DNA from: an uncultured Bacteroidota bacterium
GTDB taxonomy: Bacteria; CLD3; SB21
Direction: 5' to 3'
NCBI GenBank assembly: GCA_964415295.1
Contig: CAYPYN010000002.1
Coordinates: 324,595-388,594 of the forward strand
Length of the DNA: 64,000 nt
The translations under genes were made by a program, and so were the position numbers. Shown here one piece after another: positions 3,403 through 56,459 of the stretch (position 1 is the first letter of the stretch; every line of letters starts with the position of its first letter). Under the pieces are notes generated by a model that worked only from the letters and a program-made list of their open reading frames with translations, was not told the DNA's origin and ran no database searches.

Positions 3403-4386
3403 TTATAAATTAACCATCGTTCCGAGACCTTTTTTCTCTGCTTCTGCTATCACATGAGCCGCCACGGCCAGGTCCTGGGCCGCATTCCCTACAGATTTGA
3501 ATACCGTGATCTCGCTATCGGAAGTTCTTCCGGGCTTCGACCCGGATACGATCTCTCCTAATTCAGCATAGATATGTTGCGTATACATTTTTCCTTCTTT
3601 GATCGGAATGGCGATATCTCCTGCTTCCTTCAAAGCCGTTTCCCTTTGATCGACAATGAGTTTACACATTACGATAGTCTCCTCGGGGATCTCGCGAGCA
3701 TTGGGTTTGTAAGACCCGACGCCGTTGATATGAATGCCCTGTTTGAGATCGCGGTGGGAAAAGACGGGTTCACCGGAAGTGGTCGCCGTACAAATAATGT
3801 CGGCCAAATTCAAGTTGCGGTGATCGGATTGCAATTGGAATACCCGATCGTGCTTTTGGCTCATTTCGCTGCAAAATGATTGAGCCTGCTCTTCATCGGC
3901 GCCATAAACCAAAACCTTTTCAATATCTCGGACGGCCATTACGCCTTCCACCTGTGTCCTTGCCTGCGCTCCGGTTCCGAATATCGCGAGTATTTTAGCA
4001 TCTATTCGTGCCAGGATATCGGTGGCCAATCCGGACGCCGCGCCGGTTCTTAACGCCGTCAGGTATTCCGCATCCATCACAGCCAACGGTTTCCCGTTCT
4101 GCGCATCCGTCACGAGCATCAGTCCCTGGATAAGCGGTAAGCCTTTGGCAGCGTTGTCGTTAAAGATAGAAACAACTTTGACGCCGCTGCTCCCGCTTTT
4201 TGGAAGGTGAACGGGCATGTAAAGCATACGCGCGTTTTGATAGGGAATTTCCATGTTGATTCTGAGGGGAACGACAGCCTCACCGGACGATAACTGGCTG
4301 AAAGCGTCCTTCATCAAGTCCAACGCCCTGTGCATGGAAATGCAATGCTGAACGTCGGATCGGGAGAGTATGCGTAACGAGTTCAT
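3403..4386 (-). CDS. Ornithine cyclodeaminase/mu-crystallin family protein; putative Delta1-pyrroline-2-carboxylate reductase
   Basis: 327 aa with an OCD/mu-crystallin Rossmann fold (IFGTGAQA). Its role is inferred from adjacency to a Cys/Thr proline-racemase-family dehydratase. Confidence 0.75.
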
Positions 4387-4413: not shown

Positions 4414-5475
4414 TTATCGGAAGAAAAATCCTTTTTTCAAAGGGTCATCGGGATCGATAAGAAATTCATTCTTACCGCAAATGTGTGCCGTCCCTTCAAC
4501 TTCAGGTATGACCGCACGGTGCGGTCCAAAGGTCGTGACTTCTTTGACACGGCAGATGAACTTACTGCCGACGATACTTTCGATCACCATCGGCTGGCCG
4601 ACAGCAAGTTCCCCGCGTTCGTAATGCAAAGCCATCCGCGCGCTCACACCCGTTCCAGTCGGACTGCGGTCCACTTCACCCTCGGCGAAGATACACACGT
4701 TGCGGCTGTCCGCGCCCTTCTCTAGGCCGGGACCTGTGAAGATCGTGCCGTAGAGAAAATTCAGGTCCTTCTCAAACGGATGTTCTATCTTGAAATTTTT
4801 CATTACAGCGCGTTTGATCGCCATTCCTTTTTCGATCAGCGGCCGGTAATCTTGACCCGTCATGCGAAGGCCGACGTCATCCGCCTTGACGTAGGCATAG
4901 AATGCGCCGCCGAACGCGATGTCAAAACGAACCCGTCCGATAGCCGGAACCTCCACCGTTTGATCGAGCGCCAGAACAAACGAAGGCACGTTATGAAAAT
5001 AAACGCTTTTTACTTTTTTGTTTTTGATGCGCGCATACGCCGTAACAAGGCCCGCAGGCGTATCGATCCCGACCATGGTTTCAGGCGTGCGCATTTTTAC
5101 CAACCCCGTTTCCACGGCAACTTTGGTCACAGCGATGATCCCGTGGCCGCACATCGTGCTGTAGCCTTCGTTGTGCATAAATAGCACACCGAAGTCTGCT
5201 TCCTTGGTAACGGGCGGGGTTATAATACAGCCATACATATCCGCATGCCCGCGCGGTTCCCACATGAGCGCTTTCCGCAAATGATCCAGATGTTCTTTCA
5301 TATAACGCCGGCGCTCGAGGATCGTTCGTCCTTTTAAAGGCGGCAGTCCCGATGTGATTATCCGTAGCGGTTCACCGCCCGTATGCGCGTCAATGGCCGT
5401 GATCTTCATCCACGTTTTCGGCGGCGTCCACTTCTGCATTTTTTTGATTCGATCCGTAAAAGCTTTTTGAGTCAT
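4414..5475 (-). CDS. Proline racemase family protein, Cys/Thr type; putative trans-3-hydroxy-L-proline dehydratase
   Basis: 353 aa. The first catalytic motif, MCGHG, has Cys. The second, SPTGTG, has Thr where racemases and epimerases have Cys. Confidence 0.8.
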   Translation of the reverse strand: MTQKAFTDRIKKMQKWTPPKTWMKITAIDAHTGGEPLRIITSGLPPLKGRTILERRRYMKEHLDHLRKALMWEPRGHADMYGCIITPPVTKEADFGVLFMHNEGYSTMCGHGIIAVTKVAVETGLVKMRTPETMVGIDTPAGLVTAYARIKNKKVKSVYFHNVPSFVLALDQTVEVPAIGRVRFDIAFGGAFYAYVKADDVGLRMTGQDYRPLIEKGMAIKRAVMKNFKIEHPFEKDLNFLYGTIFTGPGLEKGADSRNVCIFAEGEVDRSPTGTGVSARMALHYERGELAVGQPMVIESIVGSKFICRVKEVTTFGPHRAVIPEVEGTAHICGKNEFLIDPDDPLKKGFFFR

Positions 5476-5484
5476 GACAGTACC

Positions 5485-6750
5485 TTAATCAAATCGGTTA
5501 GGATTCAGCGCCTCGGTATCCACGGTCGGTTTTTGTCCCGTCACGATCTCGGAAACAATTTTGCCGGTGACCGGTGACAACGTAATTCCAAGCATGGCGT
5601 GACCGGTTGCGGCGATCAGGTTTTCGATCTGACTGAATCGTCCGATAAAAGGAATGCCGTCGGGCGAACAAGGTCTCAGTCCTGCCCACGCCTGATGCGT
5701 ATCTACCGTTTCAAGCCGCATGTCATCCAGATAGGCCGGAACGGCTTTCAGAATGGCTTTCACCCGGCGTTCATTGATCGTCAGATCAATGGGACTGAGT
5801 TCCAGCGTACCGCCGAAACGCATAGCGGATCCCATCGGCGTGATGGCAACGCGCGCCTCGGTCAGAATAAAGGGTATTTTCGACCGATGCGCCGGGTTTT
5901 GTACCGTAACGCTGTAACCTTTTCCGGGCTGAACCGGCAATTTAATGGAAAGTTTTTGCAATACTTTCGGCGACCATGATCCCGCCGCCAAGACGAAGTC
6001 CTTCGCACCGATCTTGTCGCCATGAATAATAACCGATGTTAAGCGACTGCCCGATCTCTCAAATCCTGTTACTTCGGTTTTTTCAAAGAACGCAACGCCG
6101 CTCTTTTTTGCAAGGTCAGTCATAGCGTTGACAAATTGATCCGGAATGAGGTGACCGTCGTTTGGAAAAAATAATCCGCCGCGGGAAAGGATCCTGACAT
6201 TCGGTTCGAGTTCGTTGAGTTGCGCATTATTCAAGATCCTCGCTTCCACGCCCACCTCTTCCGCCAGATGCGCTTCGTGCCGGTTCGCTTTTTCGCCCGC
6301 CGCCGTATTGTACAACATCAGAAGTCCGCGATGTTCAAACCCGTATTCGATCTTCTCATCGGCGTTGATCTCTTGAAACAACCGCAGGCTCTCTTGTGTA
6401 AGATCTCTTAACACAGGCATACCCCGCCGCATTTGCTTCTCGCTGCTCGCGCGAAAATAACGCCACAGCCACAGCAGCAGATCCGCATCCATGCGCGGAT
6501 GAATATAGAATGGACTTTCCGGGTTGAACATCCATTGGAGGCCTTTGGCAACCATCCCCGGCGCGGCGAGGGGAACAAAATGACTGGGGCTGATCAATCC
6601 TGCATTGCCCCAGGAACAGGAAGTTTCCTTCCCGATCTCGTTCTTTTCAATTACGGCAACACTCAACCCGCTCTTTGTCAAATAATATGCGGAGCATATC
6701 CCGATCGCCCCTCCGCCGATGATCACTACATCAAATTTCTGCTCCATCAA
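5485..6750 (-). CDS. FAD-dependent oxidoreductase (DadA/DAO-like); putative D-hydroxyproline dehydrogenase
   Basis: 421 aa with an N-terminal VVIIGGGAIG FAD dinucleotide-binding motif and a DAO domain. It lies in the Hyp locus. Confidence 0.8.
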   Translation of the reverse strand: MMEQKFDVVIIGGGAIGICSAYYLTKSGLSVAVIEKNEIGKETSCSWGNAGLISPSHFVPLAAPGMVAKGLQWMFNPESPFYIHPRMDADLLLWLWRYFRASSEKQMRRGMPVLRDLTQESLRLFQEINADEKIEYGFEHRGLLMLYNTAAGEKANRHEAHLAEEVGVEARILNNAQLNELEPNVRILSRGGLFFPNDGHLIPDQFVNAMTDLAKKSGVAFFEKTEVTGFERSGSRLTSVIIHGDKIGAKDFVLAAGSWSPKVLQKLSIKLPVQPGKGYSVTVQNPAHRSKIPFILTEARVAITPMGSAMRFGGTLELSPIDLTINERRVKAILKAVPAYLDDMRLETVDTHQAWAGLRPCSPDGIPFIGRFSQIENLIAATGHAMLGITLSPVTGKIVSEIVTGQKPTVDTEALNPNRFD

Positions 6751-6793
6751 TTCTCCGGTTCATTTTCAAACATATAATGTTGTTTTCAATTTC

Positions 6794-6977
6794 GGCCTTG
6801 AAAAAAAAGGCGCCGAAACTTGAGTTCGCTCCATAAATTCTGCGAAAAAAATGTTTGAGACCGCTGAAAGCGGTCGAGTTTTTTTTCGCAACCAACAAGC
6901 GAACGAAAGTTTAGACGTTTTTTTCACAGCCTTGATTTTTCTTTGCTTCTTTCTTTGCATCAAGGCAAAGAAAGAAG
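6794..6977. repeat. MITE-like intergenic element, copy A: ~33 bp imperfect terminal inverted repeats plus a 3' 13 bp-stem hairpin
   Basis: It starts GGCCTTGAAAAAAAAGGCGCCGAAACTTGAGTTCGC and ends GCGAACGAAAGTTTAGACGTTTTTTTCACAGCCTTGA. A perfect hairpin CTTCTTTCTTTGC-atcaag-GCAAAGAAAGAAG follows at 6945..6977. Homologous to copies at 8755, 8964, 10861 and 13382. Confidence 0.7.
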
Positions 6978-6978
6978 A

Positions 6979-7980
6979 TTAAATAACCTGAAATCCATGC
7001 GCATACGGGTCTTCATCATCCACCAGAATCGTATTAAATCCCGTCACGCAAGCCCATCCTTCGATACTCGGTATGATCGCATCGTAGGAACCAACCTTCG
7101 TCGCCGCTTCCACGCGCCCGCGGAACAGGCTTCCGATAATACTTTCGTGAACGAAGCTATCTCCGACTTTCAATTTCCCTTTTGCGGCCCATTGCGCCAT
7201 GCGCGCAGAAGTTCCCGTCCCGCACGGAGAACGGTCGATCGCTTTATCGCCGTAGAATACGGCATTTCGCGCATGCGCTTCCGGATGTCTGGGCGTTCCC
7301 GTCCATTCAACGTGTGAACAGCCTTTGATCGACGGGTTTTCCGGGTGCACGAAGGAATATTTTTCATTGATACGCTGCCGAATGATCGGACTCCACCATG
7401 TAATATCGGAGCCATGAATATGTTCCAACCCCTTGAAATTTTCTTGGGGATCGATGATCGCATAGAAATTTCCGCCATAGGCGACGTCAAACGCGAGTTC
7501 GCCCAGATCGGGACATTCAACCGTTAAACCCGAGGAGTGAAGGAAAGAAGGTACGTTGACAATCCGAACGGACTTAACTTTATCTCCTTTCATCTCGTAA
7601 TGCGCTTCCACCAGGCCGGCGGGAACTTCCAGTCGAAGCATTCCGGGAGTTTTAGGAACGACCAGATTTTGTTCGATCATGACCGTTACGGTTCCAATGG
7701 TACCGTGTCCGCACATGGGCAGACAGCCGCTTGTTTCGATAAACAAAATGCCGATATCGTTATCCGGATGAAGTGCCGGATACAATAAACTGCCGGACAT
7801 CATATCGTGTCCCCGAGGCTCGAACATCAGCGCCGTCCGTATCCAGTCGAACTCTTTCATGAAATAAAGACGACGCTCATTCATGTTATTCCCCTGCAAT
7901 TCGGGCTTACCGCTTGTTACAACCCGTACGGGGTTCCCGCAAGTATGAGCGTCAATACATGTGAATGTGGTCTTGGACAT
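6979..7980 (-). CDS. 4-hydroxyproline 2-epimerase (proline racemase family, Cys/Cys type)
   Basis: 333 aa with both catalytic motifs carrying Cys (PMCGHG and SPCGTG). Confidence 0.85.
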   Translation of the reverse strand: MSKTTFTCIDAHTCGNPVRVVTSGKPELQGNNMNERRLYFMKEFDWIRTALMFEPRGHDMMSGSLLYPALHPDNDIGILFIETSGCLPMCGHGTIGTVTVMIEQNLVVPKTPGMLRLEVPAGLVEAHYEMKGDKVKSVRIVNVPSFLHSSGLTVECPDLGELAFDVAYGGNFYAIIDPQENFKGLEHIHGSDITWWSPIIRQRINEKYSFVHPENPSIKGCSHVEWTGTPRHPEAHARNAVFYGDKAIDRSPCGTGTSARMAQWAAKGKLKVGDSFVHESIIGSLFRGRVEAATKVGSYDAIIPSIEGWACVTGFNTILVDDEDPYAHGFQVI

Positions 7981-7989
7981 GGCGGTTTC

Positions 7990-8631
7990 TTATTTATCTA
8001 TCGCTTCGCGAGTCAATTTATCCAGATAATCCATCAAACGATCGGTTGCCTCGATCGCTTTGCTTTCATCATTCGCCGCAACGGCGCGCATGATTTCTGC
8101 ATGAAGCCCTGCCGATTGCGTCAGATCCTCATCGTGATGAAAACGGTACCAAAAACGCCGGCAGTGCGCACGAAGAGGCGCACACGCCTCCGATGCAAAC
8201 GGATTTCGGGCCGCTTCGGCTATAATTTGGTCAAATTCATGGTCAAAGTGAATAAAAGAATTCAGATCGCCTTTTTCTGATGCCGATTCTATCCGATCGG
8301 CGAGTTCCGACAATGTCTTCCTTTGTTCCGGAGTTGCGCGGCGCACGGCCTTAGCAACAAGTACTTTTTCCAGTGCCCGTCGGGTTTCCAAAAGCGCCAG
8401 ATGATCGGAAATATGGATCTCGCTGACAATAATACCTTTGCGCGGCAGAGTCTCCACCAAATGTTCCTGCGCCAGACGCAGCAGCGCTTCACGAACCGGC
8501 GTCCGCCCGATGCCGGTCTTTTGCACCAACTCGCCTTCGGATATGACGCTGCCCGGCTTAAGTTCCAGCGTCACGATCATCTCCTCGATCCGATCGTAGG
8601 CTTGGTTGGATAGTGTGGCTGAGTTGTTCAT
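7990..8631 (-). CDS. GntR family transcriptional regulator (FadR/FCD subfamily)
   Basis: It has a wHTH GntR N-domain (SEGELVQKTGIGRTPVREALLRL) and an FCD C-domain. The ORF extends to 8685, but the MNNSATL start at 8631 is more plausible. Confidence 0.78.
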   Translation of the reverse strand: MNNSATLSNQAYDRIEEMIVTLELKPGSVISEGELVQKTGIGRTPVREALLRLAQEHLVETLPRKGIIVSEIHISDHLALLETRRALEKVLVAKAVRRATPEQRKTLSELADRIESASEKGDLNSFIHFDHEFDQIIAEAARNPFASEACAPLRAHCRRFWYRFHHDEDLTQSAGLHAEIMRAVAANDESKAIEATDRLMDYLDKLTREAIDK

Positions 8632-8754
8632 GTATAGACTATTCTCATAGTATGCACCCTCACCCCTTATCCCTCCCCTTGGCAAAGAGGCTGTTGCAGA
8701 AAGAGATTATTCAATGTCAATTTTCCGTGATAAGAAAAATCATGTGAATTTTCG

Positions 8755-8940
8755 GGCCTTTGAAAAAATGCCGTTAAGAAATCGAAGCGAAAGCCCGTTA
8801 AAAACAAAACATGTCCGAGTGGCGCTTCAGGCGCCACGAGTTTGTTTTGTTTAGGGCTTGAGCGAAGATTGAGGCATTTTTTCAACAGCCAAGGCCCTTT
8901 TCTTTCTCTCTTTCTTTTGGGCCAGCAAAAGAAAGAGAAG
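8755..8940. repeat. MITE-like element, copy B1 (same orientation as A, C and D)
   Basis: It begins GGCCTTTGAAAAAATGCCG and ends GGCATTTTTTCAACAGCCAAGG. A tail hairpin CTCTTTCTTTTG-ggccag-CAAAAGAAAGAG follows. Confidence 0.65.
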
Positions 8941-8963
8941 TGATTGCATTCTATGACTTGGAT

Positions 8964-9161
8964 CCACTTTCTTTTTAAAAAAGAAAGTGGCAAAGAAAAC
9001 TTCGGCTGTGATAAAAACGCCTAAACCCTCGTTCGCAGATCGAGGTTGCGAAAAACGATTCTCTATCTTTACATAACATTAAATCAGAACGTTTAGGGAA
9101 GCCGTTTTTCGCATGAATTTTTTCTGCGAACTCGGGTTTCTTCGGCATTCTTATCAAGGCC
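8964..9161. repeat. MITE-like element, copy B2 (inverted orientation, tail-to-tail with B1)
   Basis: It is the reverse complement of copy D. The hairpin CCACTTTCTTTTTAAAAAAGAAAGTGG is followed by CTTCGGCTGTGATAAAAACGCCTAAACCCTCGTTCGCAGA, and the element ends ...TCTGCGAACTCGGGTTTCTTCGGCATTCTTATCAAGGCC. Confidence 0.7.
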
Positions 9162-9241
9162 GCGAATACCGAAAACGAATTCCGTGAATTATTCAACGAT
9201 TATGTCATTTTGCAACAGCCTCAATGGCGAAGGCAGTTCCA

Positions 9242-10678
9242 TTACGCCATCATGTACGTCGTCTTCACCGTCGTATAGAACTCCTTCGCATACGAACCCT
9301 GTTCCCTTGGACCGTAACTCGATCCTTTTCGCCCGCCGAAAGGCACATGATAATCGATCCCCGCGGTCGGCAAATTGATCATCACCATCCCGGCCTGAGC
9401 ATGCTGTTTGAAATGCTGAGCTAATTTCAACGACTGCGTGCAAATGCCCGAGGTCAAACCATACGGCGTGTCGTTGGCAATGGCAAGCGCTTCTTCATAA
9501 TTCTTCACACGGATCACACTTGCAACCGGTCCGAAGATCTCTTCACGATTGATCCGCATCGATGGATCGGTTTCCGCAAACAACGCCGGTTCAAAATAGA
9601 ACCCTTTCTTGTTTCTTTGCAATCGTTCTCCGCCACAAAGCAGTTTGGCGCCTTCTTTTTTTCCGATGTCTATATATTCAAGGTCTTTGCTCATCTGCTC
9701 TTCATCCACCACCGGCCCGATGTCTGTTCCTGTGGCAAGCGCATCATCAACTTTCAATTTCTTCATCCGCTCGGTTAGGGCTTGAATGAATCGGTCGTGA
9801 ATGCCTTCTGTTACAATAAGCCGGCTCGATGCCGTGCACCGCTGACCTGTTGAATAATACGATCCCTGGATAGCGGCATTGACCGCGACGTCGAGATCCG
9901 CGTCGTCGAGGATCACCAGGGGATTCTTACCGCCCATTTCGAGTTGGACCTTCGCCATGCGCGAAACACATTGAACGGCGATCTTCTTTCCAACTTCCAC
10001 CGATCCCGTAAAACTGATTCCTGCAACTCCCGGGTGATTAACGAGCGCATGACCCACGACCTCTCCGCGACCCATGACCATATTAAAAACACCTTTGGGC
10101 AAACCCGAGCGCGAAATGATCTCCGCTAAGGCCCATGCGCTGGCTGGAACGAGTTCTGCCGGCTTGAACACGACGCAATTACCAAAAGCCAGCGCCGGCG
10201 CTATTTTCCATGCCGGAATCGCGATCGGAAAATTCCACGGCACGATCAGCCCGACAACGCCGATCGGTTCACGCACGGCATCCACGATCACACCGGGGCG
10301 AACGGACGCAATGAGATCGCCGGAATTCCTCAGCGCTTCGCCGGCAAAGAATTTAAAAATGTTCCCGGCGCGGTTCACTTCCCCGATCGCTTCGGGCAAC
10401 GTCTTCCCTTCTTCGCGGGCGAGCAATTGTCCCAATTCATTTTGCCGGAAAAGGATCTCGCTTCCGATCATATCCAGAATATTGAATCGTATCTGTGGTG
10501 TACTGTAAGCCCAAGCCGGAAAAGCTTCTGTGGCGGCTTTTACGGCTTGATCAACTTGGGACGCATCGGCTTCCGCAAAGAGGCCTATTGTATCGATTAC
10601 ATCGGACGGATTGATATCCGGTGTCGCTGTCGCACCATCAATCCACTCACCATTGATAAAGAGTTTTTTTGTTTCCAT
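9242..10678 (-). CDS. NAD(P)-dependent aldehyde dehydrogenase; putative alpha-ketoglutarate semialdehyde dehydrogenase
   Basis: 478 aa ALDH superfamily protein with the catalytic motifs ELGGKNP (LEMGGKNP) and GQRCTA. Confidence 0.85.
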   Translation of the reverse strand: METKKLFINGEWIDGATATPDINPSDVIDTIGLFAEADASQVDQAVKAATEAFPAWAYSTPQIRFNILDMIGSEILFRQNELGQLLAREEGKTLPEAIGEVNRAGNIFKFFAGEALRNSGDLIASVRPGVIVDAVREPIGVVGLIVPWNFPIAIPAWKIAPALAFGNCVVFKPAELVPASAWALAEIISRSGLPKGVFNMVMGRGEVVGHALVNHPGVAGISFTGSVEVGKKIAVQCVSRMAKVQLEMGGKNPLVILDDADLDVAVNAAIQGSYYSTGQRCTASSRLIVTEGIHDRFIQALTERMKKLKVDDALATGTDIGPVVDEEQMSKDLEYIDIGKKEGAKLLCGGERLQRNKKGFYFEPALFAETDPSMRINREEIFGPVASVIRVKNYEEALAIANDTPYGLTSGICTQSLKLAQHFKQHAQAGMVMINLPTAGIDYHVPFGGRKGSSYGPREQGSYAKEFYTTVKTTYMMA

Positions 10679-10860
10679 GGTTGTTTTTCTATTAATTCTG
10701 AATCATTTGTTATTACTGAGATTGCTTTTGTTATTGTCGGCCTTGGAAAGTTCCAAAATAGAACCGATTTCCGCGCAACTCTATCCTGCTTCGCTTCCTT
10801 CAACAAGCATGCCGAGTCATATAGCGCCTCTATGAATTTGAATTGTGCATTGGTATTCCA

Positions 10861-11055
10861 GGCCTTGAAAAAAATGCCGGACAAACCCGAGTTCGCGCCT
10901 TAACATCGGCGAAAAACCAGTCAATACATCAGTGAATTTGCACGGCTTCATGAAATAGGACCTGTTTTTCGCCGCTATGATAGCGAACGAGGGTTTAGGC
11001 ATTTTTTTCAAAGCCAAAGTTTTATTTGCAACTTTCTTTTCTAAAAAGAAAGTTG
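10861..11055. repeat. MITE-like element, copy C
   Basis: It begins GGCCTTGAAAAAAATGCCGGACAAACCCGAGTTCGC and ends GCGAACGAGGGTTTAGGCATTTTTTTCAAAGCCAAAG. The tail hairpin is CAACTTTCTTTTCTAAAAAGAAAGTTG. Internal inverted repeats GGCGAAAAAC and GTTTTTCGCC are also present. Confidence 0.7.
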
Positions 11056-11083
11056 ATATGAGGTATTTGTTAATCAAGAGTAA

Positions 11084-11989
11084 TCAAACCTTCGGCAACA
11101 CCGGTCTATTCGCCAGCGCGGTCTTCACAATTTGTTCCACCCTCGCCCGCTCCTCGCCAATCAGCGTCAACCGTGGCGGACGAACGAGCTCAGATCCTAC
11201 GCCAACGAGTTGTTCGACGAGCTTAATGTTCTGAACGAATTTCGTTGATACATCCAGATGCAACAGCGGCATGAACCAACGGTAGATCGGCAGTGCTTCC
11301 TGGATCCGCCCGGCTTTGATCAATTGGTAAAGCACCACGGTCTCCTTCGGGAACGCGACAACCAATCCGGCCAGCCACCCGCTGGCTCCCAGGACCAGAC
11401 TCTCCATCGCCAGATCATCCACGCCGCAAAATATTTGATAACGGTTGCCAACCAAATTTATTATGTCGGTCAGACGTCGAATATTATCCGACGATTCTTT
11501 GATCGCCACGAACCGCGGCTCGTCGGCCATCTCTGCAAACATCTCCGGCGTGATGTCAACTTTATAGGCCACCGGATTATTGTAGATCATGATCGGTCGG
11601 TCGGTTGCTTTGGCTACTGTGCGATAATGCTGGATCGTTTCGCGCCGGTCTGACGGATATGGAATTGCGGGTAAAACCATGAATCCATCCACGCCAAGTT
11701 TCGCCGCCTGTTCCGCATAGTCACAGGCTTTTGCTGTAGAGGTTTCCGCTACGCAAGATATGACTGGAACTATTCCCTTGGCCGCGCCTACCGTCATCTT
11801 TATGATGTCCAATTTCTCCTGTGGCGACAGAGTCATGTTTTCTCCGAGAGAACCAAGCACTACCAAACCATGAACGCCGGCATCCATCTGAAATTGTATG
11901 TGCTTTTCCATTGCGGAAAGATCCAGCGAAAGGTCATTCTTGAATTTGGTCGTGAGTGCAGGAAAAATCCCTTCCCATTTGTTAGACAT
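11084..11989 (-). CDS. Dihydrodipicolinate synthase/N-acetylneuraminate lyase family protein; putative Delta1-pyrroline-4-hydroxy-2-carboxylate deaminase
   Basis: 301 aa DapA-family TIM barrel protein. Its role is inferred from its position in the hydroxyproline locus. Confidence 0.8.
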   Translation of the reverse strand: MSNKWEGIFPALTTKFKNDLSLDLSAMEKHIQFQMDAGVHGLVVLGSLGENMTLSPQEKLDIIKMTVGAAKGIVPVISCVAETSTAKACDYAEQAAKLGVDGFMVLPAIPYPSDRRETIQHYRTVAKATDRPIMIYNNPVAYKVDITPEMFAEMADEPRFVAIKESSDNIRRLTDIINLVGNRYQIFCGVDDLAMESLVLGASGWLAGLVVAFPKETVVLYQLIKAGRIQEALPIYRWFMPLLHLDVSTKFVQNIKLVEQLVGVGSELVRPPRLTLIGEERARVEQIVKTALANRPVLPKV

Positions 11990-12082
11990 TATTATCTCCT
12001 ATAAAAACATAATGATAAATATCCATATATCTGTAATATATCACAAAAATCCAAATTAGCAATATGTTTTTTCCAGAAAATA

Positions 12083-13246
12083 TTAGTCAGCTTGATGCAG
12101 CTTTACAAAGTAGAAAATAAGCAGAATGGTGATGAATGACGATAAGGCAAATGTCGCCATTGGATTCACAAAGTACCAGATCAGTCCGGCCAAAGTACTC
12201 GCAATCAAAGCAGTCACACTTTGAAAAGCCGCATACGTTCCGATCGCCGTTGCGGTATCTTTTTTGTCACAGATGTTACTAATCCACGCTTTGGAAATAC
12301 CCTCCGTTCCTGCCGCATACAAACCATACAGAAAGAACAGGGCGTAAAAAATATACAGTTCGCGATTTATCGCAAAACCGGCGTAAACAACGGCAAACAA
12401 GATCAACCCACCGACAAATGTTTTCCGAAATCCTATACGATCTCCTAAAATACCCATCGGATAGGAAGCCAAAGCATACACTAGATTATAAAACACATAA
12501 GCCGAGATCACGTGCACGTCGTCAAATCCCCGGTGCTTGATCATGAGTAACAAGAAAATATCGGAACTGTTGATAATCGCGAAGATCAGAAGGCCGATCA
12601 AGAGCTGGCGGTACGCGAACGGACTTTCTTTCCAGTAGTTGATAAAAGAAAAAAATGAAACGGATGAATCGGGCTTTGGATCGGCATTCTTTTCTTTAAC
12701 AAGCAGGGTTAGGAAAATGGCTAGAATTCCAGGAATAAAAGCGATAAAAAAGATCGTTCGGTATTCTCCCGGATACCATTGCAGAAAAGCCAGCGCCGTG
12801 AGCGGCCCCAGAACCGCGCCCAGCGTGTCAAAGCCGCGATGGAATCCGAATACTTTACCTTTGTGCTCCGCCGTGGTTTCGCCCGACAATATAGCATCCC
12901 GCGCGCCGGTCCGGATACCTTTTCCCAATCTATCGGTGGTTCGTGCGATCAGCACCCAAATCGGAAATGTGAACGCCGCCATCATTGGTTTAGAAACGGC
13001 GCTTAGGGCATAACCCAACTGTACAAATGGAACTCGGCGTCCCATGCTGTCGGACAACTTTCCAAAATAGCCCTTACTCATGCCCGCCGTTGCTTCGGCT
13101 ATGCCTTCCAGTAAACCGATCCACACAGCTGTGAATCCGATGCTTTGCAGATACATCGGCATGATCGGATACAGCATTTCGCTGGCGAAATCGGTGAAAA
13201 GACTAACCAGCGAAAGGATCCAGATTGTACGGGTGATGAATTTCAT
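12083..13246 (-). CDS. MFS transporter
   Basis: 387 aa with about 12 predicted TM helices. The MFS signature resembles GRRVPF and DRLGKGIRTGARDA. Confidence 0.8.
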   Translation of the reverse strand: MKFITRTIWILSLVSLFTDFASEMLYPIMPMYLQSIGFTAVWIGLLEGIAEATAGMSKGYFGKLSDSMGRRVPFVQLGYALSAVSKPMMAAFTFPIWVLIARTTDRLGKGIRTGARDAILSGETTAEHKGKVFGFHRGFDTLGAVLGPLTALAFLQWYPGEYRTIFFIAFIPGILAIFLTLLVKEKNADPKPDSSVSFFSFINYWKESPFAYRQLLIGLLIFAIINSSDIFLLLMIKHRGFDDVHVISAYVFYNLVYALASYPMGILGDRIGFRKTFVGGLILFAVVYAGFAINRELYIFYALFFLYGLYAAGTEGISKAWISNICDKKDTATAIGTYAAFQSVTALIASTLAGLIWYFVNPMATFALSSFITILLIFYFVKLHQAD

Positions 13247-13381
13247 TATTCTGTTTCTCTGTCAACCGCTTCCAACATCCTATTGACGACAAATCCTAGA
13301 AGTACCACCCCGCTTATTGACCGTCATAATTTGTCACATTTTCTTCAAATATTTTAATGAGTTCTCGCTTTGGTATTTCAC

Positions 13382-13575
13382 GGCCTTGATAAAAATGCCG
13401 AAGAAACCCGAGTTCGCAGAATAATACTGCGAAAAACGGCTTTCATAAACGTTCTGATTTAGTGTCTCGTGATGATAGAGTATCGTTTTTCGGCGCCCGC
13501 TCTGCGAACGAGGGTTTAGGCATTTTTATCACAGCCGAAGTTTTCTTTCCCGCTTTCTTTTTTAAAAAGAAAGCG
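13382..13575. repeat. MITE-like element, copy D
   Basis: It begins GGCCTTGATAAAAATGCCGAAGAAACCCGAGTTCGCAGA and ends TCTGCGAACGAGGGTTTAGGCATTTTTATCACAGCCGAAG. The tail hairpin is CCGCTTTCTTTTTTAAAAAGAAAGCGG. Confidence 0.7.
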
Positions 13576-13599
13576 GATCCAATATATGACAGATCTTCA

Positions 13600-14175
13600 T
13601 TAACTGCCCTTTGGAAACCCATCACATTGCGCGGTCTTCCTCGCCTGCACGAGATGCCTTTCCTGGTGGTTGACCAACACAGCAAAGCATTCACCCAAAC
13701 TGAATTTAAAGAACGAATTCACCGGTGAGCGCAGTTTCACAGAATTAATGTCCCACCCGTCGCACTTCTTGATGAGGATCAGCAATTCCTGTTCATGGCG
13801 AACAAAATCCTCCAAAACCTTCTTCCCTTCAATGCGGACGGACGGCTGGAAGACTGGAAAAGTCTTGAATTTGAATAAGGATCCGGGTTTCATCATGCGG
13901 GCAAACCAGCGCCCGAAAAGGCTGGGCCGATAAGGTTTTTTCTCTACAAGTTGACTGGCGCTCGTGAGTTCAATAGCCTTTTTAATACCGGCAAAATACT
14001 GCTGGTCGGAAACAATGATGTGGTCGAGGCACTGCGCAATACTCCAGCTTTTTTCATCCGGTTTCCAGTTCAATTGCTGGGGATTGAACGCATTGGCAAA
14101 ACCGCGAACTTCCTCGACATGTTTTTCAAGCCTCTCACTCAACGACCGTAAATGTGCGTTTTTCAATTCGGCCAT
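13600..14175 (-). CDS. DinB/YfiT-like family protein
   Basis: 191 aa with a four-helix-bundle DinB_2-like pattern (conserved His in HIIVSDQQY and HQERH). Confidence 0.6.
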   Translation of the reverse strand: MAELKNAHLRSLSERLEKHVEEVRGFANAFNPQQLNWKPDEKSWSIAQCLDHIIVSDQQYFAGIKKAIELTSASQLVEKKPYRPSLFGRWFARMMKPGSLFKFKTFPVFQPSVRIEGKKVLEDFVRHEQELLILIKKCDGWDINSVKLRSPVNSFFKFSLGECFAVLVNHQERHLVQARKTAQCDGFPKGS

Positions 14176-15122: not shown

Positions 15123-15249
15123 CGAAATGGTTCCAAACTTTGATCATTAACTTTACTCGGTCGTTGAGCCTGTCGAAACGACCGGATAGGCTCCTGTTAG
15201 GTCGCCGAGTTGCAGAGTGAGCTTGTCGAACTCTTGTCGAAGCGACCAA

Positions 15250-16593: not shown

Positions 16594-16743
16594 TAGACCT
16601 TAGGGGTTGGTGGATGTTCAGTTGTTTAGAATCGCCACGAAAAAGCACAAAATAATATTAATAATTTTTGACGATAGGGTTTTGAGTTTTTGTGCCTTTT
16701 GTGCTTTTTTGTGGCTGTCAGATATTCTTCTCTGTGGTTGGTA

Positions 16744-24936: not shown

Positions 24937-24965
24937 GAATATTTGTCTATTGCCGTATCACACTA

Positions 24966-24997
24966 AAAGGGTTGTTAAGAGCAACCCTTTTTTTGTT
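24966..24997 (+). terminator. Rho-independent terminator after sdhB
   Basis: Hairpin AAGGGTTG-ttaaga-GCAACCCTT followed by TTTTTTG. Confidence 0.7.
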
Positions 24998-25120: not shown

Positions 25121-26848
25121 ATGCTCCATCATATTAAAACATTCTGGTTGACCGTCGTGATCATGGTTTCCTGTTCTACCACGATTATGGCTCAGTACGT
25201 GATCGCCGATCTCAAGAATTTTGAAATGGACAAGATTTACGTGAAAGGATTCACGGTAAAACGAACGGCCACAATCTCAGTAGATGCGGTGGGTGTTATG
25301 TCGCGGTCTGAAAAATGGAACCGCTGGAATCCCATGATTGCTTACGGCTGGATACTCAATACCGACACCAAAGAAGTCGTTTGGGAAATGAAGCCTTACA
25401 ACGTTAATTCCGAATCCGGAACAAGCAATGTGGAATTTCACGGAACCGTGGCGCTTCAGCCGGGCAATTACGAAGCGTATTATTCCACTTATGGCCAGAA
25501 AATCATCCGTATATCCAAGTCCGACAGTTACATGGGCGAATTTTTCAAGAACCTCGCCAAAGTATTTGTTGACGATGAAGATTTGTATCATGATGCCGAT
25601 CAATGGAAACTCAAGATTGTGTCCAATGCATCAAGCGACAACTTCGCCTCGTACGACGGATCCAAATCGAAAAAAGTTATTTGTGCTCTGTCCGGCGCGC
25701 GCGACAGCGATTATCTGGAAAAAGGCTTTACGCTTGAGAAAGATATGAAAGTGAGGATTTACGCCATTGGTGAGGGTCAGGATCGCCGCATGTATGATTT
25801 CGGATGGCTGTTAGACGACAAAACGTCCAAGACCGTTTGGGAAATGCGGTATGAAACCACTTCCCATGGTGGCGGTGCAGAAAAGAACCGTACGTATTCA
25901 GGAATTTTTAATCTGCGCGCCGGCAATTATGTCGCAACCTATGTGACTGACGACTCCCACTCTTTTACGGAATGGAATATGCAGCCGCCGTACGATCCGG
26001 CTAATTGGGGTCTGACCATCAGCGTACTGGACGAAGAGGACCTGGCGTACGTTCGTGACTACAAAAAGTCCAAGAAACAGGAGATCATCTCCCTGACCCG
26101 AATTGGCGACAGTGAATACAAGTCGGAAGGATTTTCGTTGACGAAAACCACGGACATCCTTATCTATTCGCTGGGCGAAGGCCGCGATCACCGCATGTAT
26201 GACTACGGCTGGATCACCAATGCCGAAACCGGCCGTACGGTTTGGGAAATGCGGTACATGGACACAAAGTTCGCCGGGGGCTCGGACAAGAACCGTCTCT
26301 TCGAAGGCACAGTGACTCTGGAACCCGGGAACTATATGGTTTATTACAAGACCGACGGATCTCACTCGTACGACGATTGGAACGATGATCCCCCATACAA
26401 CGGAAGTAAATGGGGTATCACGCTCAACTTGGTCAACAATGAGGATGCAAAGAACCTTTCGAAATACAGCGAAACAGAAGACCAGAGTCTCATTGCTCAG
26501 ATCGTCAGGGTTGGTGATGATGAATACCGTACCAAAGAATTTACGCTAACCAAGGACGCCAAAGTGCGTGTCCTGTGCCTCGGCGAAGGAAAAAGCGGAC
26601 GTATGTATGATTACGGGTGGATCAAAAATGAATCCACCGGCCAGACGGTTTGGGAAATGACCTACGGCATGAGTGAAAATGCCGGAGGCGCTCGTAAGAA
26701 CAGACTGTTCGACGGAAACATCTACCTGGATGCCGGCAATTATCAAGTTGTATATATTACGGACGGTTCCCACTCGTTCGACGACTGGAACGACGATCCC
26801 CCGTATCAACCCGATAAATGGGGCATTACGATCAAACGGGTCAAATAA
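25121..26848 (+). CDS. Secreted protein built from four tandem ~135 aa repeats of an uncharacterised domain
   Basis: 575 aa with signal peptide MLHHIKTFWLTVVIMVSCSTTIMAQ. The four repeats share the pattern F(T/S)L-K-x-V-GEG-RMYDYGW-TVWEM-Y-GG-KNR-F-G-L-GNY-VY-TDGSHS-DDWNDDPPY-KWGIT. Confidence 0.7.
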   Translation: MLHHIKTFWLTVVIMVSCSTTIMAQYVIADLKNFEMDKIYVKGFTVKRTATISVDAVGVMSRSEKWNRWNPMIAYGWILNTDTKEVVWEMKPYNVNSESGTSNVEFHGTVALQPGNYEAYYSTYGQKIIRISKSDSYMGEFFKNLAKVFVDDEDLYHDADQWKLKIVSNASSDNFASYDGSKSKKVICALSGARDSDYLEKGFTLEKDMKVRIYAIGEGQDRRMYDFGWLLDDKTSKTVWEMRYETTSHGGGAEKNRTYSGIFNLRAGNYVATYVTDDSHSFTEWNMQPPYDPANWGLTISVLDEEDLAYVRDYKKSKKQEIISLTRIGDSEYKSEGFSLTKTTDILIYSLGEGRDHRMYDYGWITNAETGRTVWEMRYMDTKFAGGSDKNRLFEGTVTLEPGNYMVYYKTDGSHSYDDWNDDPPYNGSKWGITLNLVNNEDAKNLSKYSETEDQSLIAQIVRVGDDEYRTKEFTLTKDAKVRVLCLGEGKSGRMYDYGWIKNESTGQTVWEMTYGMSENAGGARKNRLFDGNIYLDAGNYQVVYITDGSHSFDDWNDDPPYQPDKWGITIKRVK

Positions 26849-26869
26849 GAATCTCCCGCAAAAACTTAA

Positions 26870-26903
26870 AAGCGATTTCTTTAAGGAAATCGCTTTTTTT
26901 ATT
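26870..26903 (+). terminator. Rho-independent terminator
   Basis: Hairpin AAGCGATTTC-tttaagg-GAAATCGCTT followed by TTTTTTT. Confidence 0.7.
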
Positions 26904-56289: not shown

Positions 56290-56459
56290 AGCTTTAGTAA
56301 AGAAACTTTTAACCACAAAGTGCACAAAATAATACTAACAAAGAGCGCAAGGAATAGAAAGTATTATACTTAGTGATCTTGTGATTTTCTCTCAGTGAAC
56401 TTTGTGGTTAGCAAAAATTAACAATACAAACTTAGAATGTTTTTGAACTTTATCAAATA

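Follow-up and report, generated by a model that had tools for sequence, protein, structure and literature searches.

Mobile-type palindromic repeats in the intergenic gaps of a hydroxyproline locus from an uncultured Bacteroidota bacterium

The window analysed here, a 64-kb stretch (64,000 nucleotides) of contig CAYPYN010000002.1 from an uncultured Bacteroidota bacterium, contains five related non-coding elements that occupy four intergenic gaps of a minus-strand hydroxyproline (Hyp) locus. They are genuine members of a family of mobile-type palindromic repeats of intergenic regions that had not been catalogued before; the family has some unusual anatomy and comes from an uncultured lineage of the Bacteroidota/FCB (Fibrobacteres–Chlorobi–Bacteroidetes) type. 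The family itself, its dispersal, its insertion polymorphism, the conserved pairing of its arms and its terminator-like geometry are directly observable. The explanation that is favoured, and considered probable, is that these are lineage-restricted, non-autonomous mobile palindromic repeats, independently inserted into an already assembled Hyp locus, where each likely functions as a bidirectional terminator or 3′-end hairpin. Sequences of other genomes and assemblies used for comparison carry L numbers. The five copies and the composite formed by two of them are listed below.

6772..6978, plus strand: copy 1, C-type unit, extent taken from the empty sites in L010, L011 and L013; core 6794-6977; head extension of ~22 nt 6772-6793, long hairpin 6794-6931, A/T hairpin 6946-6977.
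8686..8945, plus strand: copy 2, B-type unit; core 8755-8940; head extension 8686-8754, long hairpin 8755-8890, A/T hairpin 8907-8938.
8957..9223, minus strand: copy 3, inverted A1-type unit; core 8964-9161; A/T hairpin 8964-8990, long hairpin 9004-9161, head extension 9162-9223.
8686..9223, unstranded: tail-to-tail composite of copies 2 and 3, ~540 bp, with inverted GAGGCTGTTGCA ends.
10849..11063, plus strand: copy 4, A2-type unit; core 10861-11055; long hairpin 10861-11015, A/T hairpin 11029-11055.
13328..13585, plus strand: copy 5, A1-type unit; core 13382-13575; head extension 13328-13381, long hairpin 13382-13536, A/T hairpin 13550-13576.

The five places proposed in the initial annotation were confirmed by nhmmer: with copy 5 as the single query, copy 3 was recovered at E = 6e-46, copy 4 at 2e-24, copy 1 at 7e-13 and copy 2 at 3e-07. 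Copy 1 matches the family hidden Markov model (HMM) at E = 2e-42, and no further copy was detected by this HMM in the remaining 57 kb of the window. All copies are intergenic and lie between minus-strand genes, as had been described. Each unit is ~207-270 bp long, carries no conserved open reading frame (ORF) and is tripartite. A head extension, which varies, lies on the 5′ side; it is followed by the long hairpin, imperfect and ~140-160 nt in length, whose arms are conserved and whose apex varies, and the 3′ end is formed by a small A/T-rich hairpin. Besides single units, tail-to-tail pairs exist. Alignment of the copies with wide flanks places the boundaries of the repeat outside those proposed earlier, which do not cover the full unit: conservation includes a TTGGTATTC motif and continues for ~20-75 nt on the GGCC (head) side, depending on the copy, and for ~8 nt (GATYCAAR) past the small hairpin at the tail. 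For copy 5, the similarity to L001, L006 and L007 spans 13328-13582.

The end sequences quoted previously are exact in copies 3, 4 and 5, while copy 1 differs from them at several positions, each difference being matched by a complementary change in the opposite arm, and copy 2 is strongly diverged. Similarly, the internal repeat GCGAAAAAC...GTTTTTCGC is found in copies 1, 3 and 4, whereas copy 5 deviates by one base in its 3′ half (GTTTTTCGG) and copy 2 has AAAAACAAAAC...GTTTTGTTT instead. The A/T-rich hairpin of 11-13 bp is present in five of the five copies. In copy 2 the head extension opens with the outer motif AGAGGCTGTTGCAG and the apex forms a G+C stem-loop followed by a T-run (8819-8847); the head extension of copy 3 closes with TTGCAACAGCCTCA, the reverse complement of the outer motif. 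The resulting inverted ends of the composite lie at 8686-8699 and 9210-9223, and the motif occurs in the window only at these two ends, apart from one match with two mismatches. Copy 1 abuts the epimerase stop codon (6979-6981), with the DAO ATG (6748, minus strand) 23 nt downstream of the insert; copy 4 begins 20-28 nt past the DHDPS stop codon (11084-11086), and copy 5 begins 14-23 nt past that of DinB_2 (13600-13602). Three ORFs of 83-108 codons (8667-8993, 10817-11077 and 13443-13694) lie wholly or mostly within elements and are almost certainly spurious. Conserved small ORFs or a type I toxin were considered and rejected: ORFs starting from ATGCC in either arm vary in length and frame between copies.

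The entry of the elements into the gaps by insertion is demonstrated by the orthologous Hyp loci of relatives, which are empty, together with copies found at other sites in these relatives. The genes concerned, with the starts at 6748 and 8634 re-read from orthologues, are the following.

5485-6748, minus strand: FAD-dependent oxidoreductase (DAO).
6979-7980, minus strand: 4-hydroxyproline epimerase.
7990-8634, minus strand: GntR/FCD regulator.
9242-10678, minus strand: aldehyde dehydrogenase (ALDH; Aldedh).
11084-11989, minus strand: DHDPS-like protein.
12083-13246, minus strand: MFS transporter.
13600-14175, minus strand: DinB_2 protein.

The gene order IRK-DinB_2-MFS-DHDPS-Aldedh-GntR-epimerase-DAO is identical in relatives without elements. 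At the syntenic loci of L010, L011, L013, L016 and L017 the empty sites correspond to spacers of 24-144 nt, compared with 228-609 nt in the window, and no family member was detected by the HMM in the compared Hyp spacers of relatives. The individual spacers of L011 (81% epimerase identity), of L016/L017 (86% ALDH identity) and of the window are as follows.

DinB to MFS: 271 nt in L011, 139 nt in L016/L017, 353 nt in the window.
MFS to DHDPS: 77 nt in L011, 93 nt in L016/L017, 94 nt in the window.
DHDPS to Aldedh: 78 nt in L011, 85 nt in L016/L017, 405 nt in the window.
Aldedh to GntR: 144 nt in L011, 72 nt in L016/L017, ~609 nt in the window.
GntR to epimerase: 32 nt in L011, 61 nt in L016/L017, ~10 nt in the window.
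Epimerase to DAO: 24 nt in L011, 116 nt in L016/L017, 228 nt in the window.

Polymorphism is also observed in the opposite direction. In L012 (88% epimerase identity) the head of a copy lies 47 nt upstream of the epimerase start, where the window has ~10 nt and no element; in L016 a full copy lies between the PhoH-like and IRK genes, where the window has a 127-nt spacer without a copy. Since relatives share the gene order and have short, element-free spacers, the elements were inserted after the locus had been assembled, and the earlier suggestion that they mark its recent assembly is contradicted. Furthermore, L015, an independent short-read assembly of an identical ALDH gene, stops precisely within the tail hairpins of copy 4 and copy 3, a behaviour that is expected at repeats.

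Some of the spacers compared contain palindromes of other kinds. The epimerase-to-DAO spacer measures 24-26 nt in L010, L011 and L013, whereas unrelated palindromes occupy it in further relatives: AACCCCACCC...GGGCGGGGTT in L012 (L012:1096-1177) and TTTCACCGC...GCGGTGAAA in L014:1070-1160 and L018:6352-6442; in L016 this spacer is L016:13215-13330. This spacer is a hot spot, in which different hairpin families land right after one stop codon. In the Aldedh-to-GntR spacer, a plus-strand CACCCTCACCCCTTATCCCTCCCC just outside the end of copy 2 (8641-8672) matches half of the palindrome AACCCCATCC..CCCTCCCCTTGGCAAGGGGAGGG..GGGTGGGGTT that fills the same spacer of L016 (L016:11438-11509). The composite may have been inserted into a resident palindrome or may have replaced half of it.

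The identity matrix indicates that the copies of the window did not arise from one another. Copy 1 is nearest to the L016 copy and L002A (74% each), copy 2 to the MAG-300 copies L006B and L007B (89%), and copy 4 to L004A (83%), followed by L002A (80%). Copies 3 and 5 are 87% identical to each other and 86-87% identical to MAG-300/301 copies (L001A, L006A and L007A); they are the only two that group together within the locus. Copy 2 shares 62-66% identity with the other window copies; identity between types amounts to 60-74% overall and to 62-74% among the copies of this locus. Local duplication as the origin of the cluster is thereby ruled out. The five copies fall into at least four sub-lineages, all of them also present in other genomes, and thus reflect repeated independent insertions into the Hyp locus. 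According to a rough gene map, all four occupied junctions belong to a run of six consecutive ones among ~47 (P ~0.002 under uniform placement); this clustering could reflect target preference, tolerance or selection.

The family is dispersed beyond the Hyp locus. In a search with one genome per species, seven exact matches to the right arm were obtained in three metagenome-assembled genomes (MAGs): four in MAG-300, two in MAG-301 and one in an uncultured Bacteroidota MAG. The neighbouring genes (GGDEF response regulator, biotin carboxylase, PEGA protein, Mrp-type ATPase, amino-acid permease, homocysteine methyltransferase and M28 peptidase) are unrelated to hydroxyproline, which confirms a dispersed family of non-coding hairpin repeats, as previously proposed. 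Further B-type copies, similar to copy 2, were detected by nhmmer in L004, L006 and L007, and a C-type copy, similar to copy 1, in L005; ~20 copies are known in at least six genomes or assemblies. In alignments with L006 (77% over 546 nt) and L007 (79% over 517 nt) the composite of copies 2 and 3 behaves as one unit, and it also aligns in this way with L001, which carries an internal deletion of ~130 nt in one long hairpin. The A1+B composite thus recurs in other gene contexts, and L005 has another tail-to-tail pair. In the B-type partner of MAG-301 (L001:~900-1070 compared with L006:1384-1601) the flanks of the ~130-nt loss are 96-97% identical to the MAG-300 copy, and the loss is an example of palindrome deletion. 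A scan of JGI metagenomes with the arm pattern gave two matches, both to a chance terminator hairpin in a flavobacterial-type contig, and no family members; a scan of a viral collection gave no match and hence no phage link. Consequently, the family appears rare and lineage-restricted. Rfam 15 yielded no match at gathering thresholds over the window, and a permissive pass yielded a chance plant-miRNA match only (E = 0.81, 27 bits against a threshold of 140).

On either strand, each copy folds into one long imperfect hairpin and a separate A/T-rich one. Copy 5 folds with a z-score of -6.6 (RNA) or -7.7 (DNA), a stability that no shuffle out of 200 attains; the long-hairpin folding as RNA that had been predicted is therefore far above chance. 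In the consensus structure of 14 full units (RNAalifold), 45 pairs are predicted, 20 of which show changes on both sides with pairing kept. Paired cells reach 95.8%, compared with 44-58% when partners are slid, and none of 500 shuffles attains the observed values. At the foot of the tail hairpin, two base pairs alternate between four or more complementary states in copies that are otherwise alike, and in the arms of copy 1 CC...GG is replaced by TT...AA while the adjacent tandem G.A mismatch is retained. An outer helix between TTTGG (before the head) and CCAAA (after the tail) was considered and rejected, as its pairing is not kept in L002A, L004A and L005A. Plain Watson-Crick pairs make up 94% of paired cells, with 12 G-T cells against 2 A-C cells. 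Folding energies are better for the sense strand in nine copies and for the antisense strand in five, and the G-T/A-C counts lean to the element-sense strand. Taken together, these pairing statistics are less in keeping with a structured RNA of one strand than with a palindrome that acts, or is preserved, as DNA or in both orientations.

With regard to the mobility class, bacterial miniature inverted-repeat transposable elements (MITEs) are defined as sequences below ~400 bp that lack a transposase gene and have terminal inverted repeats and flanking target duplications (PMC3184786). The elements are small, carry no transposase gene and exist as multiple dispersed intergenic copies, and their presence and absence at orthologous sites in both directions is what mobility entails. 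The ends were mapped for copy 1, the sole insertion for which three empty sites (L010, L011 and L013) define the insert, at 6772-6978. On the window minus strand the junction reads TAA|TCTTCTTTC...GGCCGAAATTGAAAACAACATTATATG|TTTGAAAATGAACCGGAGAATTGATG, and the corresponding empty sites are TAAGGGTTTTGAATCGGAGCATTTCAGATG in L011 and TGAAATTTAATTGAATCGGAGAATTGGAGATG in L010. The 33-bp inverted repeats described earlier as termini lie ~22 nt (left) and ~47 nt (right) inside these ends, and no inverted repetition relates the true ends, CATATAATG... and ...AAGAAAGAAGA, to each other; inverted sequences at the termini are confined to the composite of copies 2 and 3. Nor is the target-site duplication expected of a MITE found at this junction, the only well-mapped one: after the anchor AATTCTCCG the spacer is 13 nt both in L010 and in the window with the insert removed, so that a duplication of 4 nt or more is absent, although the flanks TCAAA| and |TTAAA are compatible with an A-rich duplication of up to 3 nt. 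Composite flanks CTTA/CTTA are present in L006 only. TCAA(A/T/G) occurs at or near the left junction of three C-type copies (copy 1, L016 and L012) and not of L004A, which is suggestive only. The transposition mechanism seems to make no target duplication, and the elements are MITE-like in behaviour but not proven classical MITEs, as single units lack two of the defining MITE features at the one good junction. Integron attC sites were also considered: the arms GCCTAAAC / GTTTAGGC fail both R″/R′ cores (RYYYAAC ... GTTRRRY) by one inserted base. Integron cassettes are likewise rejected, given the gene order conserved in relatives without elements and the occurrence of elements in both orientations.

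The geometry of the long hairpin resembles that of an intrinsic terminator. In essentially all 16 copies, with few exceptions, it has GGC or CGGC as its closing clamp and T5-8 behind it, whichever strand is read; an A-run on the other side of the hairpin mirrors the T-run. Native terminators of the window share this A-tract/G+C stem/T-tract form (for example, 26868-26900 and 24965-24995), and the apexes of copies 1 and 2 were themselves scored as terminators. Copies 1, 4 and 5 and the L016 copy start 0-29 nt past the upstream stop codon. Other hairpins occupy these same gene ends in relatives: an unrelated TTCCCCGCCTT...AAGGCGGGGAA at the DHDPS end (the copy 4 site), a palindrome CCCTCCCC...GGGGAGGG after Aldedh, and two different palindromes after the epimerase, one in L012 and one in L014/L018. 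From these sequences we infer a turnover of 3′-end hairpins, with the element family now in that role. The role of operon-internal terminator or stabiliser suggested in the initial annotation is plausible in view of the G+C clamp plus T-run on both strands, and it is derived from sequence only. Among the single copies whose neighbours are known, six of seven run antisense to the genes and have their head beside the downstream start codon, which is suggestive and not significant. Outward or inward promoters were considered and rejected: single sigma-70-like sites exist, but the scan does not exceed chance and the sites lack conservation across sub-types.

Taking these observations into account, the favoured explanation can be formulated as follows. 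A family of small non-coding palindromic units, mobile now or recently and unable to move alone, contributed several sub-lineages, inserted separately into short spacers of the pre-existing hydroxyproline locus. After insertion, the long hairpin would be transcribed within the Hyp mRNAs and, with its G+C clamp followed by a U-run on either strand, would most likely act as a bidirectional intrinsic terminator or as a protecting hairpin at the 3′ end. The locus would then be divided into MFS-DHDPS, Aldedh, GntR-epimerase and DAO-onward units, whose downstream genes would rely on read-through or on promoters beside the head. Both the effect on transcription and the transposition mechanism are what we infer from the features described above.

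Several points weigh against this explanation. The hairpin is far longer than typical terminator stems, termination being read here from the DNA alone, and base pairing is possible between its T-run and the A-run opposite. Copy 1 occupies an epimerase-DAO junction that is tight in the operon of relatives, where a strong terminator would be polar unless a promoter were supplied; promoter-like hexamers near heads (6789-6762, 8748-8720 and 9215-9188) are not enriched, 13 being counted compared with 8.8 +/- 3.3 in shuffles. Single units are without terminal inverted repeats and without a clear target duplication, and no transposase or other mobilising gene was found linked to the family; the search for a parent element covered the window, not whole genomes, and revealed no partial copies elsewhere in it. 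Template switching during replication is a documented neutral source of paired changes, and the compensatory changes could have arisen in this way without selection (PMC8794818). Finally, only ~20 copies are known.

An unlikely alternative is that the elements are selfish passengers without a meaningful effect on expression, inserted into gaps that merely tolerate them, their pairing being kept by template switching or hairpin-templated repair. The 94% Watson-Crick pairing, the 12 G-T against 2 A-C cells and the fact that no strand folds consistently better point to a palindrome at the DNA level, and template switching can both create and maintain hairpins (PMC8794818); the loss of ~130 nt of long hairpin in L001 is, moreover, typical of palindrome instability. 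In contrast, an mRNA containing a -70 kcal/mol hairpin with a U-run would hardly remain unaffected by it, and the other hairpins at the same gene ends in relatives suggest that hairpins are favoured there. Tolerance alone is also hard to fit to four occupied junctions within six of ~47 (P ~0.002), filled by different sub-lineages.

In the other direction, the favoured explanation can be extended tentatively, to a scenario that is doubtful as a whole. The unit might be a portable, orientation-independent terminator or insulator cassette that moves without duplication by recognition of the hairpin (HUH- or IS110-like, or by hairpin recombination), prefers the 3′ ends of genes and replaces native terminator hairpins; its sub-lineages might have been recruited repeatedly to split the Hyp operon, and its arms might be kept complementary by template switching.

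It is considerably less probable that each unit is an independent small RNA (sRNA) gene, transcribed from a promoter in the head into a hairpin RNA of ~200 nt that stops at the T-run, so that tail-to-tail pairs would be convergent sRNA genes. A sigma-70-like TTGCAA-N16-AATAAT does read into copy 3 (9215-9188), and TTGCAA with an A/T-rich -10-like hexamer is found in L001A, L006A and L007A as well; G-T wobble and tandem G.A mismatches slightly favour the element-sense strand, on which the apexes of copies 1 and 2 form G+C stem-loops followed by T-runs. However, the promoter-like site is missing from copies 1, 2, 4 and 5, head extensions vary in length between ~22 and ~75 nt, the promoter scan does not exceed chance, Rfam gives no match and the pairing is almost purely Watson-Crick. 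The 23-nt operon spacer that holds copy 1 would also be an odd birthplace for a gene.

That the elements are Hyp-specific cis-regulatory DNA or RNA (GntR/FCD operator arrays or a ligand-sensing leader) duplicated within the locus is extremely improbable: all five window copies lie in the Hyp locus and L012 has another in the same locus, but the neighbours of copies in other genomes are unrelated genes, Hyp loci of orthologous type function in the absence of elements, the window copies are not each other's closest relatives, and the likely operator is a different palindrome, TGTAATATATCACA (12032-12045), outside the elements and conserved with L011. A GntR operator inside the elements was rejected, as this is the only exact operator-like palindrome.

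Comparison with known systems reveals partial likenesses in every case. Correia elements (CREE) of Neisseria are likewise non-coding, intergenic and built of inverted-repeat arms, with a length of 100-160 bp; they lie at gene ends, are co-transcribed, vary in occupancy between close relatives and can supply terminators, promoters and RNA-processing sites (PMC3184786). They differ in having truly terminal inverted repeats of 26 bp and a TA target duplication, whereas here the inverted repeats are internal, the A/T hairpin and head extension lie outside them, and no duplication exists at the mapped junction; there is no sequence similarity between the two families. The ERIC/IRU elements of Enterobacteriaceae are also imperfect palindromes over most of their length, with conserved pairing, intergenic location and transcription together with flanking genes, and affect mRNA stability (PMC3184786). 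Unlike these ~127-bp elements with terminal repeats and a TA flank, the window family is larger, of different sequence and three-part, and it forms tail-to-tail composites.

SPRITE is similarly a dispersed repeat downstream of genes, with a predicted structure resembling an intrinsic terminator, and the present family shares the stable G+C-closed stem followed by a U-run just after genes. SPRITE, however, measures ~105 bp and has a short stem; the window elements differ in their very long stem, in carrying the terminator-like signal on both strands and in their host phylum. The RAYT-mobilised REP/BIME/REPIN sequences are palindromic, extragenic, often arranged as inverted doublets, and without target duplication; they lie between operon genes and stabilise the upstream mRNA, and the window family likewise lies between genes. 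In contrast, REP units are G+C-rich, 20-40 nt long and headed by a conserved 5′ GTAG: the alignments contain no short unit headed by GTAG, and the arms are A/T-rich and at least 33 nt long. No RAYT gene was found linked to the family, the genome as a whole not having been searched for one. In the organisation of the ends there is a correspondence with the palindrome-associated elements (PATEs) derived from IS200/IS605, which insert 3′ of a fixed target of 4-5 nt and are asymmetric, with subterminal hairpins and neither terminal inverted repeats nor target duplication; these last three features are shared by copy 1. Here, by contrast, no Y1 transposase, TnpA or TnpB is linked, Rfam gives no match of the omega-RNA type, and a fixed target tetranucleotide is not established; the likeness to IS200/IS605-derived elements is one of layout, and no membership in that group is implied.

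Terminators, RNA-stabilising hairpins and promoters are commonly brought into bacterial operons by small palindromic repeats, which are poorly catalogued, and such elements have hardly been described in uncultured Bacteroidota/FCB-type bacteria. In the present locus the state before insertion, represented by the tight junctions of relatives, can be compared with the state after it gene by gene. The absence of terminal repeats and of target duplication hints at non-classical movement. In practical terms, the elements yield spurious ORFs that would mislead automatic annotation, and they break short-read assemblies, as in L015.

Further observations concern the surroundings of the elements. The palindrome TGTAATATATCACA has its sole exact match in the window at 12032-12045, upstream of the DHDPS-like gene, and is conserved in L011 (TGTAATATATTACA) inside a sigma-70-like promoter, TTGCTA-N16-TATATT; this arrangement suggests that it is probably the operator of the GntR/FCD regulator. 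Two genes that follow DAO in the window, a second member of the proline-racemase family (4414-5475) and a gene for ornithine cyclodeaminase/mu-crystallin (3403-4386), are absent in syntenic relatives, where an M24 peptidase comes directly after DAO. In L018 (85% ALDH identity), a bAvd gene and a reverse transcriptase (L018:88-1535) lie immediately upstream of the Hyp-locus DHDPS gene, in what looks like a diversity-generating retroelement. Another repeat family, with hairpins of the TTCGACAGGCTCA / GCTCCCTGAGCCTGTCGAAGGGAGC type, is present in the PhoH-to-IRK spacer of the window (15123-15249), in L011 (3286-3397, 4921-5191 and 8854-8997) and in L013. After the PhoH-like gene (16630-16715), there is a long A-tract/T-tract palindrome, GCCACGAAAAAGCACAAAA...TTTTGTGCTTTTTTGTGGC, a portion of which (AAAGTGCACAAAATAATACTAACAA) is found again at 56317-56341, so that it may represent a further family of small repeats or terminators. 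Finally, four in-frame copies of a ...GWI...TVWEM motif, ~405-456 nt apart (25331-26659), lie within a 575-aa ORF (25121-26848) and constitute an internal protein repeat unrelated to the hairpin elements.

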